From positions 1,920,001 through 1,984,000 of the forward strand of contig OZ245003.1 of the NCBI GenBank assembly GCA_965223425.1: 64,000 nt of DNA, written 5' to 3'. This document shows, in pieces, positions 44,814 to 52,251 of this stretch (the first letter of the stretch is position 1; every line of letters starts with the position of its first letter). The stretch is from Nitrosopumilus sp. (GTDB lineage: Archaea; Thermoproteota; Nitrososphaeria; Nitrososphaerales; Nitrosopumilaceae). The notes beneath the pieces are model-generated. The model ran no database searches. It was not told the origin of the DNA and worked only from the letters and a program-made list of their open reading frames with translations. The position numbers and the translations under genes are program-made.

Positions 44814-45434
44814 TTAGAATCTCCATATTTTTGGCTTGACAAATTTTATTTTCTTCTGAGTAATTAAAACCGTCCAATTGATTGACGCAAAAAGAATAAT
44901 CACGCCGATTCCTGCACCATCAATTAGCAAAATTCCCATAAGGCGATCTTCAAATATTTCCAGAAATGGAGTCAGAACAGCATTTCCAAAGTATATCATA
45001 ATGACATAAGAGATGACTCTACCAAGCCAAAATCCAACATAGATCCCCATGCTCTTTGCCCGCATCAGCCCATAGGTGATAAACAAGAAATTGCTTGGAA
45101 GGGGCGTTGCTCCAAAGAGGAATGAGGCTATGACATAGCCGTGTTTTTTGTGATTTAGATAATCTCCAATAATGTCAAGGTTAGATTTCTGCTCCTGCCC
45201 AGCAAATCTCCTAAATAAACCACTAATCATTTTTAGGAAAAATCTGCCTATTGTTGCCCCGGTTGCGCCCACCATGGCAAGAATGACAACATTCAAGCTA
45301 GGATCAAGAAGATAAAATGATGTCAAGACAATCCAGCTAGGTGGCATCAAAATTGGGGCAGCATTTACACCAATCAGAACTAGAAAGATTCCAAGATACG
45401 AGTACTCTCCAAAAATTTCAAAGATATCCACCAT
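44814..45434 (-). CDS. membrane protein (DedA/VTT-like)
   Basis: Multiple hydrophobic helices; GAT.G and TPLPS motifs. Confidence 0.75.
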   Translation of the reverse strand: MVDIFEIFGEYSYLGIFLVLIGVNAAPILMPPSWIVLTSFYLLDPSLNVVILAMVGATGATIGRFFLKMISGLFRRFAGQEQKSNLDIIGDYLNHKKHGYVIASFLFGATPLPSNFLFITYGLMRAKSMGIYVGFWLGRVISYVIMIYFGNAVLTPFLEIFEDRLMGILLIDGAGIGVIILFASINWTVLITQKKIKFVKPKIWRF

Positions 45435-45620
45435 ATTTCTAAGGTTATGTCATGTTTTTTGTTTCTAAACCCTTGGATTTAGCTTTTAGTCAGAAGAAAA
45501 TTTCATTATGATCCAATAAATTAAAAAAATTACATGTTTTTCAAAACAATGATCATGTATTGCAACTAATAGAATCAATTATGCAATATATTTATAAGCA
45601 GTTTACGCTCATATTTAACC

Positions 45621-45743
45621 ATGTCCGAGATGGTTTGGAAGTGTTTTAGATGCAATCTGTCTTTCAAGGACGAGGATTTGGCTGAAATACACAAACAAAT
45701 TTCAGAACATTCTGTTACCAAAGTAAAGACACTAGCTGCATAA
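45621..45743 (+). CDS. small zinc-finger protein (40 aa), below the ORF-track cutoff
   Basis: MSEMVWKCFRCNLSFKDEDLAEIHKQISEH (C2H2-like), preceded by TTTATAA and followed by a T-run. Confidence 0.7.
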   Translation: MSEMVWKCFRCNLSFKDEDLAEIHKQISEHSVTKVKTLAA

Positions 45744-45781
45744 TTTTTAAAAATTTTCTAAATATCATGAATAAAATTTAG

Positions 45782-45882
45782 TGCAGAGGGTGGGATTTGA
45801 ACCCACGAACTCCTGAGAGAAGGGATTTCCTATTTTGAGGATCTTGAGTCCCTCTCGGTTGACCGGGCTTCGATACCTCTGC
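45782..45882 (-). tRNA. tRNA-Leu(CAA) with a 16-nt canonical 37/38 intron (45827-45842)
   Basis: Acceptor GCAGAGG/CCTCTGC-A, anticodon arm AGGGA-CTCAAG[intron]A-TCCCT, variable arm, GTTCAAATC T-loop. Confidence 0.93.
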
Positions 45883-46024
45883 AATGAGGTTGGATAATGA
45901 CTGATATTTTTCGATTGCTATTATGGGAATTGGATACTCTAGCGGGATTAATTTTAGATCTTCTTTCTGTTTACTTTCGGGGGATACATTCATTCTTAAA
46001 AAAAATTGTTTGAAATTTATACAC

Positions 46025-47470
46025 TAGACATTATGCATAATTGACCAGTCAAATTTTTTTTCTACAGCGCAAGCCATCAAGATACAAAGACAGGTCCAAA
46101 AAATGACCCGTCTGGCACAAAACATACGATCACTCAACAGATCCGGGAGAATTCAAGCGCACATGTGCGCACCATTCCATGCATCATGCACCCTGTATCA
46201 CATATCAACAGTCAAGTGACGGCCGCTTTTTCTTTGCATCCCACAGCAAACCAAAGTTTGCAAGGCCGGTACACACAGCCAGCTCCTCGCGAAACTCCTC
46301 TACCGTGCCGTCGTACGGGTCTGTCATCCTCGCCCGCTGCTTTATTCTTCCGATGGCGTGCCCCGCCTTTACCCTCTTGGCGCTGATCCTTTTGTTCGAG
46401 TCCTTTTGCTGCTGCGTCAGCTCCGCTCGTGGCCTCTTTTTTTCCGGCATCTCAAGTGCTATTCCCTCGTAGTGATTGGCATCCCTGGTACCCCTTGTCT
46501 GCAAGCACCGTATCCTGTCCTTTTCCGGAGTGTCTTTTTTGTACATGGATTTAGACCACCTGCCAGTCTGTCGGATCCTCTCTTATCATGGCAAGATCGT
46601 GCGTCCCGCCCTCAAAGGACCTGCCTGCTGCAAGCATCGGGCCTGCCCTGTTTGTTGTTATGGTGGTGTTAATCGTAAAGCGCTTCTTTTTGCCAGAGTA
46701 CGTGTTTTTTCTTTTATCCCTGTCCTGCGGACGCTGCCTTGGCACCACCTCGGTGCCGTCAATTATGATGGTTCTGTCCGGCATTAGCTGCTCTAGCTGC
46801 CCTGATGTCTCGGCCTTTTTTACCAGACGGGTCATCCTGTCTGCAGTAGGCAGGATCCCTGCCAGCACGGAACCTGCGAACCGGAGGTACCTGCACACTG
46901 TGGACTGATCCGCATCAAACAGCGCCCCAGGGCGTCCTGCGTCACGTTTGAGCGCCTGCGGAACAGCGCAAGCAACAGGACGGATCTGCGGCCAGGCAGG
47001 CAGCGGTTTCCGGGATCCGGTGTTTCGTCCTCTGAAAAGAGCGGCGCGTCTTTGTTGTGCCTCTTTGACTCTGCCACAAAGTCGTTGCAGATGTAGTCAA
47101 ACTGGTCAAGGTCATACGGTAATCCCTGCAAGCTTTGCGCTGTTGTGCAGTATGCCGTGGATCACCTCCCTGCTGTGCAGCAGCGACGTGTCCGTATCAG
47201 AGCGGCCTGCATCTGTAACGGCCCACAGGCTGTCCTCGCGCAGCAGCTGCTGCTCGCGCAGCAGGCCAATCGTCTTCTCGCGCTTGCTGATTGCTCTGTT
47301 GTTCTGCTTGATTGCTGTGTCCTTTTGCCTGATTGCTGTGTCCTTTTGCTTGAGCTCTTTTTGCAGCCTGCGTATAGTCTGTTCTGAAGATTCCATTACC
47401 TGTTGCGGCGATCAAAATGGATCTAAATCTTTCGGAAAAATTTTTATGATTCAATTATGCATAAAGTCTA
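46025..47470 (-). mobile_element. IS5-superfamily (ISL2-like) element, full length, frameshifted transposase
   Basis: 20-bp TIRs TAGACWTTATGCATAATTGA at 46025-46044 and 47451-47470; homologous to 1-1431. Confidence 0.9.
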
Positions 47471-47551
47471 ATTTAATCAGATGCTTGCGTTTTTCATGTT
47501 TGTTCTCATTTAGAATATTTGTAAAGATTGGGTCTGTTGCTGTAATACCAT

Positions 47552-49306
47552 TCATGTGTTGGAATGAACCTCATATTTTAGATATATTGGTTTTTCCTTT
47601 ACGTCCAAAATATCTAATATTTTTTTGAATTCATCAAAATCCTTGATATCGTCTCTTCCTTCCTTGATAGCTTGATCTACAAAGGATTCTAGTGATTGCA
47701 TGCTATACATTACCGTATACATGATAAATAATTTTCTATTCAAGGTCAAAGATGTCTTTTCATGCATATAGTCTTGAACTATTCGTCTGCTCTGATTCCT
47801 GCTATCTGTCTTACAATTATCTTGCTCGAACTGCAAAATACGTTTTTCATGCATGATGATGCGATGATATAGTTCGCCAAAATCCTTAGAGGGTAGTAAA
47901 TCTTGGACGGATCTACCATGTTGTTTTTTATTGTATCTTGATAAGATATTGATTCTCTCTGATGCCTTTGAAAACTCGTATGTAAGTGATTCTGGATATA
48001 GCAATGCTTGTTTTTCATACGAATCCTTGGGACTGTGACCAAGAACATGATCTGCAACGTCAGGCCTGCATCCAGAATCAATCAGTGTGGATTTTAACAG
48101 ATCCCGCATTTCATGTGGAGTGCACCGATTCATTGTATGATCACCACGTAGTAATTCTACTCTTGCAACCAGCTTGTGAAATCTTCTTGATAGCCAGTTT
48201 ACTGTAATCGGTTTTTTGGCTCTGTTTACAAATAATGCCTCACCAACTTTTGGTTTTGCATGGCGGACATGCAGGTATTCTACTAGAGCAACAACTGCAT
48301 CTGTGTCAAGAAATCCCATATGCAAAAAATCTGTCTTTGTTCTTCTCAACTGTATTGGTACTGAAGTATTTTTGACATCCCATAATTCTGGTTTATCTGA
48401 TTGAAAGTGCTCTACAAGCTGTTCCCATACCTCAAAATTGAATCTGTCTGCAAACGTTGAGCTGTCAAGTCCCCTCTGGAATTTGCATAAAAATACCGCT
48501 TTCTCTATTGGCTGTATGTTTCTAATGGTGAGAATTTTTTGTAGAGTTTCAATGGATAGGGGAGCAGTTGGTATGTTTTTTGTTAATCTAATTCGAGATT
48601 TAAAATAAAATATAATCTCTGATTCGTTTTCCCGAAAAAATGATCTTATTGCATACATGGAATTTTTTACCAGATGTGGTTTCTCATCAAAGGCAATTTT
48701 ACCCAAATACTCCTTTATCTGCCGGGCACACTGACTCGGTACTATTTCGTCATGTACGGATCCCAGGCTTGCAGACTCCATCTGTTCTACGGCCTTTATG
48801 GCATACATCTCAGAGGCATCGATTTTCACATCGTATCTGTCAAGCAGGCTGTGGACGCGGTTTATCACGCGTGTCCTGTCCTGTACGGTCCTGATCCTCT
48901 GTCTGACCATGGCCCGGACTCCTCTTGTGTCAGCTGACGGCACATAACACTCTGGTATTGAATCCATCCTCAATACGTTTGCTATCTTTTGTGCGTCAAT
49001 CTTGTCTGTCTTCTTTCCCGTCTTTGCAATTATTGCCATCTTGTAGGTGTTGGCAAGCTTTATGTCGATTCCATGTCTCTCAAAGGCGCCGTATGTGATG
49101 TTCCACATGTTGCCCGTCGTCTCGCATGCTGCCTGACATCTTCTGGCAGAATACCTGAGTGCCGTCTGTTCTGCGAATCTGTCTGCATCTGAGACGGTGT
49201 TTTGATACTGGCCAGTATGCAAAACCTTTCCCTTCCCGTCCATGACGCATACGTCACATTTTCTCTTTCCAATGTCTATTCCTATGCTGATTGTTCCTTT
49301 GCTCAT
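47552..49306 (-). CDS. chimeric ORF: IS110 DEDD (RuvC-like) domain and coiled coil fused to a tyrosine-recombinase catalytic domain (~584 aa)
   Basis: SD GGAGGTGA before MSKG. IS110 motifs GIDIG, ACETTG and KTDKIDA. After ~48715, integrase motifs FQRGLD, R.KT, HEMR, LGH and downstream Y. Single open frame. Confidence 0.85.
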   Translation of the reverse strand: MSKGTISIGIDIGKRKCDVCVMDGKGKVLHTGQYQNTVSDADRFAEQTALRYSARRCQAACETTGNMWNITYGAFERHGIDIKLANTYKMAIIAKTGKKTDKIDAQKIANVLRMDSIPECYVPSADTRGVRAMVRQRIRTVQDRTRVINRVHSLLDRYDVKIDASEMYAIKAVEQMESASLGSVHDEIVPSQCARQIKEYLGKIAFDEKPHLVKNSMYAIRSFFRENESEIIFYFKSRIRLTKNIPTAPLSIETLQKILTIRNIQPIEKAVFLCKFQRGLDSSTFADRFNFEVWEQLVEHFQSDKPELWDVKNTSVPIQLRRTKTDFLHMGFLDTDAVVALVEYLHVRHAKPKVGEALFVNRAKKPITVNWLSRRFHKLVARVELLRGDHTMNRCTPHEMRDLLKSTLIDSGCRPDVADHVLGHSPKDSYEKQALLYPESLTYEFSKASERINILSRYNKKQHGRSVQDLLPSKDFGELYHRIIMHEKRILQFEQDNCKTDSRNQSRRIVQDYMHEKTSLTLNRKLFIMYTVMYSMQSLESFVDQAIKEGRDDIKDFDEFKKILDILDVKEKPIYLKYEVHSNT

Positions 49307-49488
49307 CCTTCTATCACCTCCTTTCGGATCTTTGACGGATCGGAAGCTGCATACACCTATCAGGGCGCAAGGCCCAGTCACACAGCAGCTCGGATTGCCC
49401 CATTCAAGATCAAGGGCGCATGGCCCATACGTACACAGGGGTCGATTCATCACTACAACTACGACGAGGTGGTTATCATGTGTTCAAG
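49307..49488 (-). ncRNA. candidate IS110 bridge-RNA-like leader
   Basis: Two consecutive stem-loops (49398-49441 and 49345-49390), each capped by a GGGC-N5-GCCC hairpin with a large internal loop, immediately upstream of the IS110 ORF. Confidence 0.6.
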
Positions 49489-50961
49489 CTAAGGAACATT
49501 CATGATTCCTTCTTTGATCAGAAACTGTATTCCTCGAATGAAAGAGTCATCGTCTATTTGTCCTGCTGCCCACCACTCTGCATTGTTTTTAATCCAAGAT
49601 GGGATTTCATTTGAACCAGAACCAGTATTGGATGTTGGCGGAATCTTTATGATTCCTTCTTTGATCAGAAACTGTATTCCTCGAATGAAAGAGTCATCGT
49701 CTATTTGTCCTGCTGCCCACCACTCTGCATTGTTTTTAATCCATGGCGGTATTTCAGAATAGGACACATCATTATCACTTGATTCTTCAAGAAGCGGATT
49801 CTCTGCAATCTCAACTTCCACTATCACATATCCGCCCAATTCAGAATTTGGTACTTCATATTCGTATCCTGTGCCGTGAACAAATATTGCATAACGGACA
49901 GTGCCTGCCTTTTCTTCTATTGGAAGAAGAATGTGGGCCTGGCCAAACCCGTTAAACAGATCTGCACGTCCAATGTCTTTGGCATACGAGCGAATTCTGT
50001 TGTTATCCTCATCTACTACCCAGATGTCATAATGAACCTGATCAACAAATTCCACTTCATTGTACTTGTTCATGAAATTTATTTTCCAGTCAATGTTGCA
50101 GCCCTCAATAGGTACCTCCGGAGAATAGTTGTACTGTACCAGCATGGAAAATGTGTTTGTGGATGCACGGCCACTCACATAATCATGAAATACGGTTGGA
50201 CATCCCAGCAGCTGTTCTTTTTTGACTGTTGATTCAACATCTCTGAAAGGATCATCTGTAACGTTTTCTTCATAATCTAACAAAGTGTACTGATGCATTA
50301 TTGGGGCAATGCCTGTTGTGACCCATGCAAAAGTAAGTGCCTTGAGGGGGAAAGGAAAATCATCCAGTATCCAAATCTCATTATTGTTTCCGCTGTACCA
50401 CCCAACTACAACGGCATCAGCAGTTCCTGCAGGAGTGTTTATCGTCTCCACTCGTTTTGGAATTAGCTGGGCGCCTCCAATGGCTGCAATCTTTCCCCAT
50501 GCGGCATCCCGGAATTCCTTTGGCCCGTGAACTCTATCATCTTCATTTGCAGTGGCAAAAGCAGACAGCCAGCTCAATGAGGACTTGAATCCAATTGCAT
50601 AGTCAAAAAGATCATCATCAAACAAAAAGGGGTTGGGGGCAACCTTGCCAAGCCCCATCGAGCCTTTGATGATCTTATTGCCGTCAATGACTACAACCTT
50701 TGCATCCCACAATGACTCACTTTCATTTTGTATCTCTCCTTTGATCCACATCTTCAGTTTGATTGGTGCACAGTCATTGAGATCTATTTCACACAAAGAA
50801 TACTCAAAGTAATCTCCAATTTTTAGTCCCTCGCCTGAATACCAAGAGCCGTCAACATCAACGCCGCCTGATGTTTGAACGCCCTGGCCAAAAGAGAGGT
50901 TTGAAAATGCAGGAATCGCACCTAAAATTAAAACTGACGCAACAATCAATACTAGTCTCAA
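49489..50961 (-). CDS. secreted protein with two thaumarchaeal C-terminal IPxWIKNNA.WW domains
   Basis: Signal peptide; duplicated IP.WIKNNAEWWAAGQIDDDSFIRGIQFLIKEGI. Confidence 0.85.
   Translation of the reverse strand: MRLVLIVASVLILGAIPAFSNLSFGQGVQTSGGVDVDGSWYSGEGLKIGDYFEYSLCEIDLNDCAPIKLKMWIKGEIQNESESLWDAKVVVIDGNKIIKGSMGLGKVAPNPFLFDDDLFDYAIGFKSSLSWLSAFATANEDDRVHGPKEFRDAAWGKIAAIGGAQLIPKRVETINTPAGTADAVVVGWYSGNNNEIWILDDFPFPLKALTFAWVTTGIAPIMHQYTLLDYEENVTDDPFRDVESTVKKEQLLGCPTVFHDYVSGRASTNTFSMLVQYNYSPEVPIEGCNIDWKINFMNKYNEVEFVDQVHYDIWVVDEDNNRIRSYAKDIGRADLFNGFGQAHILLPIEEKAGTVRYAIFVHGTGYEYEVPNSELGGYVIVEVEIAENPLLEESSDNDVSYSEIPPWIKNNAEWWAAGQIDDDSFIRGIQFLIKEGIIKIPPTSNTGSGSNEIPSWIKNNAEWWAAGQIDDDSFIRGIQFLIKEGIMNVP
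49502..49743. repeat. 95-bp perfect direct repeat (49502-49596 and 49649-49743)
   Basis: Identical nucleotide copies encoding the duplicated C-terminal domain. Confidence 0.9.
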
Positions 50962-51177
50962 TATGAGATCAATTCAAATGCGTGCCTCATAAGTTATTCT
51001 ATGTTTTCTCACATATGACAATATTATGAATAGCAAAACCACAGTTTGAGCAGGCGGTTCTTAGAATCTAAAAGTATCAACATGGCAATCTTGAAACAAA
51101 ACACCGGTTGCTGGATTTTCTTGATACCAGACACACACACACATCATGCTTAATAATTATCAGCACGTATCTATGTA

Positions 51178-52251
51178 ATGAATGTTTTATTTCTTGGATT
51201 GCTGTTGATGATCTTGTTTTTGAGTACTGGAATGTATTCTGCTGATGCCGTAAAGGCCAAGGGAACCTATCTGCCTGAAATTAATTCTGACAAGGTCTGC
51301 GGTGACAGGCTGTGCTCTGAGATTAGCCAAGAGACAAAAGAGGCCAAATCCCAGATGTCAGAACAGGAAGATCCGGCAGTTGAGGACAAAGGGGAGGAAT
51401 CTGTCATGGATGATTCCCCGTACACCATAACAAATGTTGTGGGAAACATACATGTCCTCACAGACGGAAGATACAACTCGATGTTCATTCCAACTGGCGA
51501 GGGCGTGATAGTGTTTGATGCGCCCAACAATTTTGGTGAGAACCTCGTAGAGTTAATCCAGGGGACTACAGGCAAGTCAGTAACACATCTGGTGTATAGC
51601 CACGCACACAAAGATCATATAGGTGCGGCGCACGTGTTTGGAGATGGCGTGACAATCATTGCACACGAGGAGACCAAGGCATGGCTTGAGCGCTCTAATG
51701 ATTCACAGCGTCCAATACCTGACATAGCATTCTCAGACCAGTACACGCTTGAGCTTGGGGATACTATAGTAGAGCTGTCATACAAGGGGCCGGCACATGT
51801 AAGGGGAAACATCTTCTCATACATTCCAGAATACAAGACGCTGTTTCTAGTTGATCATGTGCAGCCTGGCTGGGTTCCATTTTATGCCCTTGGAATATCC
51901 GAAGACATAGGTGCATACATGGATGCATACGAATGGATTTTAGAGTATGACTTTGAATATTTTGTTCCAGGACACGGCATGGTAGGTGACAGGGACGATG
52001 TATTATTACACCAAAAATACGTCATGGATTTACGTGACAGTGCCCTTGATGCAATCCAAACAGTTGACTATGCAGAGGCCACTGCCAACGTGGATCCACA
52101 TGGATACAATGTCTTTGATGCGTATCTTACTACCTTGGCAGACAGATGCGCCAAGCTCAGCGACGATACATGGCGAGATGTGCTAATCGGCACGGATACG
52201 TGGACTGAGAGCAGCTGCAAGAGGATGATCCTGAGCATTTTTGTCGATTGA
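51178..52251 (+). CDS. secreted MBL-fold metallo-hydrolase
   Basis: Signal peptide, KVCGDRLCSE motif, SHAHKDH and PGHG motifs. Confidence 0.9.
   Translation: MNVLFLGLLLMILFLSTGMYSADAVKAKGTYLPEINSDKVCGDRLCSEISQETKEAKSQMSEQEDPAVEDKGEESVMDDSPYTITNVVGNIHVLTDGRYNSMFIPTGEGVIVFDAPNNFGENLVELIQGTTGKSVTHLVYSHAHKDHIGAAHVFGDGVTIIAHEETKAWLERSNDSQRPIPDIAFSDQYTLELGDTIVELSYKGPAHVRGNIFSYIPEYKTLFLVDHVQPGWVPFYALGISEDIGAYMDAYEWILEYDFEYFVPGHGMVGDRDDVLLHQKYVMDLRDSALDAIQTVDYAEATANVDPHGYNVFDAYLTTLADRCAKLSDDTWRDVLIGTDTWTESSCKRMILSIFVD

Follow-up and report, generated by a model that had tools for sequence, protein, structure and literature searches.

An in-frame fusion of IS110 and tyrosine integrase sequences in a Nitrosopumilus genome is very probably a young deletion scar

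A 64,000-nt stretch of a Nitrosopumilus sp. genome (assembly GCA_965223425.1, contig OZ245003.1; G000:C1:1920001-1984000, called the window below) contains one open reading frame (ORF) in which the first half of the transposase of an IS110 insertion sequence (IS) runs without interruption into the catalytic part of a tyrosine integrase. An earlier note on this frame, here termed P0001, had offered two accounts of it: a putative hybrid recombinase guided by RNA, or a scar, in frame by chance, of an IS110 insertion followed by a deletion. Which of these accounts does the locus support? The genome in question comprises 2.64 Mb in two contigs and is 99.99% complete, and both the parents and the relatives of P0001 could be sought in it and beyond. 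Our analysis indicates that P0001 is very probably a pseudogene-type chimera, produced by an IS110 insertion and then a single illegitimate deletion that was in frame by chance. The parts of the locus on which this reading rests are the following.

47552-49306, minus strand: chimeric 584-aa frame P0001, consisting of IS110 residues 1-197 and integrase residues 102 to the end in homologue numbering (from Pfam and alignment)
48715-49306, minus strand: 5′ 197 codons of an IS110 transposase gene, with the RuvC-like DEDD domain and coiled coil; PF02371 with its conserved Ser is missing
49307-49488, minus strand: left end of the IS110 copy with its non-coding leader of 182 nt, common to other copies
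47552-48714, minus strand: integrase remnant of 387 codons, lacking ~101 N-terminal residues; catalytic domain whole, C-terminal tail native, and only the final one and a half helices left of the N-terminal domain
48715-48718, minus strand: junction; ATAA (48718-48715) possibly from either parent, a possible 4-nt microhomology for which the integrase-side DNA is presumed

P0001 starts with an ATG at 49306 and stops with a TGA at 47554-47552, and a ribosome-binding-like GGAGGTG lies a few bases 5′ of the ATG, just as the earlier note had described it (a 584-aa frame at 47552-49306 with an upstream Shine-Dalgarno sequence). The longest version of the frame, from a GTG at 49453, has 633 aa, but the ATG is the likely start because the intact sister gene has the same upstream extension and the family profiles begin at residue ~7. 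The profile scan proposed at that time placed both domains above their cut-offs, DEDD_Tnp_IS110 (PF01548) at aa 8-158 (E 8.9e-29, 100.7 bits against a cut-off of 29) and Phage_integrase (PF00589) at aa 310-426 (E 2e-10, 41.2 bits against a cut-off of 27.1). All four DEDD positions are present (D11, E62, D101 and D104); the sister copy has the same four acidic residues, in columns that line up with those of the solved ISCro4 transposase. The serine-bearing Tnp domain PF02371 was not found in P0001 at E <= 1 and is present in the intact sister, in keeping with the earlier reading that the serine domain is absent. In the integrase part, which has no internal stop and no frameshift, every tyrosine-recombinase residue is kept (R278, K324, H398, R401, H424 and two candidate nucleophile tyrosines, Y430 and Y437). 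The counterparts of these residues are invariant in 35/35 aligned homologues, and the Arg of FQRGLD, which had been singled out before, is therefore a normal first catalytic Arg that completes the previously named set of K, HEMR, LGH and Y. The join, formerly placed at ~48715 where the DNA turns AT-rich, lies exactly at 48715/48714, and the GC fraction does step there, from 0.46-0.52 over 48700-49500 to 0.31-0.43 over 47500-48700. The identification of the first part as an IS110 half with four DEDD residues and a coiled coil also stood; its length needed correction, from ~195 to 197 residues.

The IS110 parent was readily found. Positions 48716-49488 matched six long places in the same genome at 98-100% identity, plus fragments, and BLAST with the best copy (G000 C1:2063371-2064777) defined an element of ~1407 bp. 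Compared with this intact copy, the window copy is 98.6-99% identical from 49491/49488 to 48715 and then departs, so that the window holds the 5′ 774 nt of the element, i.e., the leader and 197 codons. The element's right end was not found at the window locus, where homology ends at about element position 774-782. The window copy was aligned with four of the five further long copies (C1:276311, which is internally rearranged, was omitted), and 4/4 of these read on past 48715 as the same IS110 sequence. Only two changes in the ~774 nt are private to the window copy, a 1-nt deletion 5′ of the ATG near 49311 and one Ser-to-Asn replacement. Because the IS110 half has hardly diverged from the sister copies, the join is judged on sequence grounds to be very young.

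The intact sister encodes a transposase of 364 aa that carries PF01548 and PF02371 (the latter at aa 222-308); against NF033542 (“IS110 family RNA-guided transposase”, cut-off 140) it reaches 212.6 bits, with profile positions 2-343 covered. P0001 scores 110.1 bits on this profile, under the cut-off, over positions 2-193 of 343. The sister protein aligns with both solved transposases of the family, IS621 (8wt6) and ISCro4 (9t56). For IS621, the RuvC-like domain is described as residues 1-122 and the Tnp domain as residues 189-326, dimerisation is attributed to the coiled-coil domain, and the active site is described as a composite, to which one protomer contributes S241 of its Tnp domain and another its DEDD residues, recombination being abolished when any of these is mutated (PMC11208158). 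In the alignment to IS621 and ISCro4, residue 197, the last before the break, lies roughly where the coiled coil gives way to the Tnp domain. P0001 therefore keeps the RuvC-like domain and the coiled coil (the aligned region spans about residues 125-197) and is without the whole Tnp domain. Its N-terminal 197 residues are the same RuvC-like DEDD domain and coiled-coil region as in these family members, and the non-coding left end is kept as well; unlike them, however, the window copy stops at ~774 of ~1407, lacking both Tnp domain and right end, and hence has no ability to move or to supply the serine nucleophile.

The leader had been regarded as a retained RNA component. Its 182 nt are indeed kept; the leader is simply the left end of the IS and is common to all copies. 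No Rfam match to it was obtained at E <= 1 (the scan of 45000-52000 returned a tRNA only and no bridge-RNA family), and its minimum free energy, calculated from the single sequence, was no better than that of shuffles (z 0.21).

Several of the other IS110 copies are interrupted. C1:850532-853072 and C1:2133301-2135839 carry an insert of ~1.13 kb at the same element position, with a 4-nt flank overlap, which corresponds to window positions 48884-48887, and loose ends of public contigs at 48884 and 48887 show the same insert ends. A third copy, C1:1871987-1874298, has an insert of ~1.1 kb about 80 nt further on. These inserts are either a second element that targets this IS110 or duplicated interrupted copies.

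We searched the 387 residues that follow the join (P0002) against 5.8 billion clustered proteins and obtained 472 hits at E <= 0.001. Among the best 120 of these, 119 are stand-alone proteins, about 325-600 aa in length, for which either PF00589 alone or no family is recorded; the remaining one, P0003, carries PF01548 and PF00589 and is a near-identical variant of P0001. The closest stand-alone proteins in this set are P0004 (426 aa, 89% identity), P0006 (422 aa, 86%) and P0005 (428 aa, 81%). By alignment, the integrase part of P0001 starts at the K of ...EFVRLIK-EYLGKIAFDEKP..., which is residue 102 of P0004, and the ~101 residues that precede this point, well conserved among homologues, are missing. 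The integrase half is thus that of the stand-alone thaumarchaeal integrases (PF00589; fold like Tn1549 Int, XerA and XerH), with residues 198-584 being 89% identical to P0004 and having the same invariant catalytic positions, except that the first ~101 residues of those proteins, most of their N-terminal domain, are replaced by IS110 sequence. The long C-terminal tail (residues ~495-584) also occurs in P0007 and P0212, and is therefore not a product of the fusion. Matches to the integrase half came from 22/151 family genomes.

An AlphaFold model of P0004, built from a 35-sequence alignment, had a mean predicted local distance difference test (pLDDT) score of 82.6 and an N-terminal domain of helices and a beta-hairpin at residues 1-130. 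In this model residue 102 lies inside a helix, 95-111, in a block with pLDDT 91-93. A PDB sequence search with P0004 gave no match, and in a scan of genome contigs with the same protein no relative was found; a fold search with the model matched the Tn1549 integrase, archaeal XerA, XerH, IntI, lambda Int and Cre (E down to 1e-6 over ~360-380 columns). Tyrosine integrases are reported to be common on integrated elements of thaumarchaea, where 39/68 elements with defined sites used tRNA genes (PMC6563490). ARAGORN predicted a tRNA at 2 of 14 loci whose integrases are 38-50% identical, in flanks of only about 1.5 kb.

At the join itself, the minus strand of the window reads ...CAG ATA AAG GAG TAT..., and intact IS110 reads ...CAG ATA AGG AGC C.... 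The integrase homologues have Ile-Lys-Glu-Tyr at this point. If the Ile codon of the integrase parent was ATA, the letters ATAA would have been common to both parents, and a crossover there would yield the sequence seen, with no base added or lost. We then consider what each parent should have left behind. No IS110 fragment starting near element position 777 occurs anywhere in the 99.99%-complete genome. When P0004, P0005 and P0006 were run by tblastn against the same genome, the window locus was matched from residues 98-108 onward, with no match near it for the N-terminal ~97-107 residues of the integrase, and the sole other match in the genome was a complete, 38%-identical paralogue at C1:1579333-1580499. 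That both reciprocal pieces are missing from the genome suggests a deletion rather than an inversion or a translocation. Once two co-oriented genes are joined, the prior chance that the join is in frame is one in three, and therefore the open frame itself is not beyond chance.

The join is real DNA, since it is carried both by a contig from another study and by a second assembly. The former, a 3055-nt contig of run X2, spans 48000-48913 with one differing letter and includes ~200 nt on the IS110 side of the join; the latter, a 270-kb contig, encodes P0003, the same 584-aa protein with 581/584 residues identical. The three differences of P0003 (R43K, N109S and P190L) all lie in the IS110 half, and each is the state of other IS110 copies in the genome studied here; they could reflect gene conversion, or a mixing of repeat copies during assembly. 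Contigs of three public runs (X1, X4 and X6) have loose ends precisely at 48715, past which they continue as intact IS110. Assembly across a repeated IS might be suspected of having created the join, given that the IS110 part is a 6-copy repeat and that the X1 and X4 contigs stop only 22 nt past the join, for which reason we did not count them as bridging. Their ends are, however, where a 31-letter word falls wholly inside the repeat, as expected of graph assembly, and with the X2 contig and the second assembly both crossing the join we regard the chance of an assembly chimera as close to nil.

We further examined whether the architecture occurs elsewhere. With P0001 as query, an exhaustive HMMER search of 1.84 billion cluster representatives returned 4161 hits (E <= 0.001). 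None of the best 150, which reach down to ~102 bits, covers both halves; their best stretches lie within query residues 4-214 (IS110-type) or 156-584 (integrases). Three of these 150 have two matched stretches, of which two carry PF00589 only and the third is 243 aa long. A survey of the family covered 401 genomes, including the window's own (two of them flagged as unpublished), at a match threshold of E <= 1e-10 and with at most three candidates scored per genome. It returned 188 matches from 96/401 genomes, and among the 150 matches listed, residues 1-584 were spanned only by the window's own locus and by none from the 400 other family genomes. A well-diverged fusion of the same halves would have topped the search lists. 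The conserved fusion that had been sought in relatives was thus not seen: among the matches listed, the architecture is confined to this organism or a near-identical strain, with P0003 as the sole other carrier. A literature search for DEDD/IS110-tyrosine recombinase fusions, made at the level of titles, retrieved no title describing one.

The predicted structure of the fusion is in line with two separate parts. In a model of P0001 from a mixed alignment of 28 sequences, the halves fold separately, the predicted template modelling score (pTM) is 0.45, and residues 210-242, just past the join, have pLDDT below 50. The model suggests that the remnant of the integrase N-terminal domain, which is confidently folded in the full-length protein, loses its context in P0001. 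The structure prediction that the earlier note had called for thus shows no defined arrangement of the halves.

Taken together, these data argue for a deletion scar, the second account of the earlier note, through the very pattern that the note had named as refuting the hybrid: an IS110 of ~99% identity is intact in the same genome, stand-alone integrases of up to 89% identity exist in related assemblies, and the pieces join exactly at 48715. We propose that a recently expanded IS110 copy inserted with its left end beside the stop codon of the gene at 49489-50961, co-oriented with a tyrosine integrase gene close by, of a type found on the integrated mobile elements of ammonia-oxidising archaea. 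Subsequently, a deletion would have taken IS110 positions ~775-1407, the first ~101 integrase codons and everything between, possibly by way of the four letters ATAA common to both parents. With both Ile codons in the same phase, the join would have come to be in frame, and the frame would then run to the native stop of the integrase. The presumed product has a RuvC-like domain and coiled coil without Tnp, followed by an integrase catalytic domain whose N-terminal partner domain is largely gone. Such a protein is unlikely to perform recombination by either chemistry, and we infer that it has no selected function. Two other routes to the join were considered and rejected. Cleavage by the IS110 enzyme itself does not fit a break that is internal to the IS and not at an end, and recombination between copies of the ~1.1-kb element that interrupts other IS110 copies does not fit a join at which none of that element is left.

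Several observations weigh against a mere scar. The catalytic residues of the integrase part and the DEDD tetrad are intact, the integrase part has neither stop nor frameshift, and the frame keeps the ribosome-binding-like sequence and start codon of IS110; a protein could thus be produced, perhaps with some of its activities left. A second, slightly different assembly (3/584 residues changed) and a contig of a separate study have the same join, which must therefore have been maintained, at the least between closely similar strains or samples. The microhomology is a postulate, and since the large searches show only their best hits, a remote fusion of these two kinds of domain may exist elsewhere in nature. 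What might P0001 do if it were more than a scar? In a functional hybrid, the DEDD domain and coiled coil would bind the leader as a bridge-type RNA, and the tyrosine catalytic domain would replace the serine Tnp domain at RNA-specified DNA. In its favour, both Pfam domains and every catalytic residue lie in a single open frame of 584 aa, the leader is retained and the junction is present in two assemblies. Yet the whole Tnp domain is gone, and in IS621 both S241 and the DEDD residues are described as essential for recombination (PMC11208158); residues 1-101 of the integrase N-terminal domain are lost through a cut that, according to the P0004 model, falls mid-helix; and the ~99% identity of the IS110 half to active-looking sisters leaves no time for adaptation. 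Nor did another example appear among the best 150 of 4161 hits, the best 120 of 472, or the 400 other family genomes (150 of 188 matches listed), and the fusion model, with its pTM of 0.45, gives the halves no defined arrangement. The proposal of an RNA-guided hybrid recombinase is thus unsupported, both halves being cut inside structural domains at a join that appears very young, in an architecture otherwise seen only in a near-identical strain among the listed matches, and we consider it extremely improbable.

A more modest role would be that of an expressed by-product, in which the RuvC and coiled-coil half dimerises with intact transposase or soaks up RNA and so damps transposition, the integrase half being a passenger. 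Truncated transposases act as inhibitors in other transposon families. The region aligned with the coiled coil, about residues 125-197, is kept in P0001, the cell has further copies of the same IS, intact or nearly so, and the coiled coil is named as the dimerisation domain of IS621 (PMC11208158). Against this, no RNA run turned up among the runs listed for the stretch, the window copy is not set apart from the other IS fragments in the genome, and nothing suggests selection; we therefore hold such a by-product to be very unlikely. It is very unlikely that a translated chimera binds the leader RNA or pairs with full-length transposase, which would make it a trans-inhibitor of IS110 or, more boldly, an accidental prototype of an RNA-guided tyrosine recombinase. 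The deletion scar remains our strongly preferred explanation. The surroundings of the frame include the following features.

46165-47470, strand not assigned: GC-rich (0.5-0.6) DDE_Tnp_4 insertion sequence with at least 20 genome copies at 84-97% identity, ending about 80 bp 3′ of the stop of the chimeric frame
45782-45882, minus strand: tRNA-Leu of 101 nt (Rfam, 43.8 bits), with anticodon CAA as read from the Rfam alignment and a long variable arm
49489-50961, minus strand: 490-aa gene with its TAG stop immediately next to the left end of IS110, in DNA that is unique bar an internal tandem repeat

In three congeners, synteny with this region extends up to and including the tRNA-Leu, at 75-90% protein identity, and the tRNA-Leu is the last syntenic feature. 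The genes that come next in these congeners (~15 kb) sit here at C1:~811,900 down to 792,000, about 1.15 Mb away. The chimera therefore lies between IS copies at the breakpoint of a large rearrangement; the data indicate that this rearrangement was IS-associated, with one breakpoint adjoining the chimera. The P0001 gene also differs from the stand-alone thaumarchaeal integrases in its location, which does not correspond to that of the syntenic region in the three congeners. Integration at the neighbouring tRNA-Leu was considered as well and rejected, as the integrase is on the 5′ side of the tRNA, where the three congeners continue with the genes that are ~1.15 Mb away here; for the same reason the adjacency of integrase and tRNA looks like a product of the rearrangement. 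The genome, at 2.64 Mb, exceeds most of the congeners listed (1.2-2.8 Mb).

Some further observations concern these neighbours. In the DDE_Tnp_4 copy at 46165-47470, the transposase is broken up into three or four ORFs at least. The tRNA-Leu was missed by ARAGORN, which found no tRNA in the whole window. The 490-aa gene has no Pfam match and ends abruptly (...MNVP) after the second of two tandem C-terminal repeats of ~40 aa; its original C-terminus may have been truncated by IS110. The 357-aa gene at 51178-52251 (plus strand) has no close orthologue in 12 congeners (best 33-37% identity), and the region beyond IS110 may therefore also be strain-specific.

P0001 resembles the chimeric frames that arise from IS-associated deletions in IS-rich genomes, having, like them, two truncated parents, an arbitrary internal join, little or no homology and lost reciprocal parts, and a setting of flanking IS copies and broken synteny. 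Nothing substantial sets it apart from these; here both parents are DNA recombinases and the join is in frame. Most likely, then, it belongs to this kind of scar and not to a new type of recombinase. A true hybrid of this design would have added a new class to the RNA-guided recombinases, one that might have been useful in genome engineering. The case carries a caution: in IS-rich genomes, a deletion that joins two truncated recombinase genes in frame can mimic a new domain architecture. Here, scar and invention were told apart by looking for intact parents in the same genome and in relatives, by mapping the breakpoint on the domains of the parents, and by hunting for the reciprocal pieces. 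For the organism itself, the locus documents how the activity of IS110 and DDE-type elements reshapes this archaeal genome.

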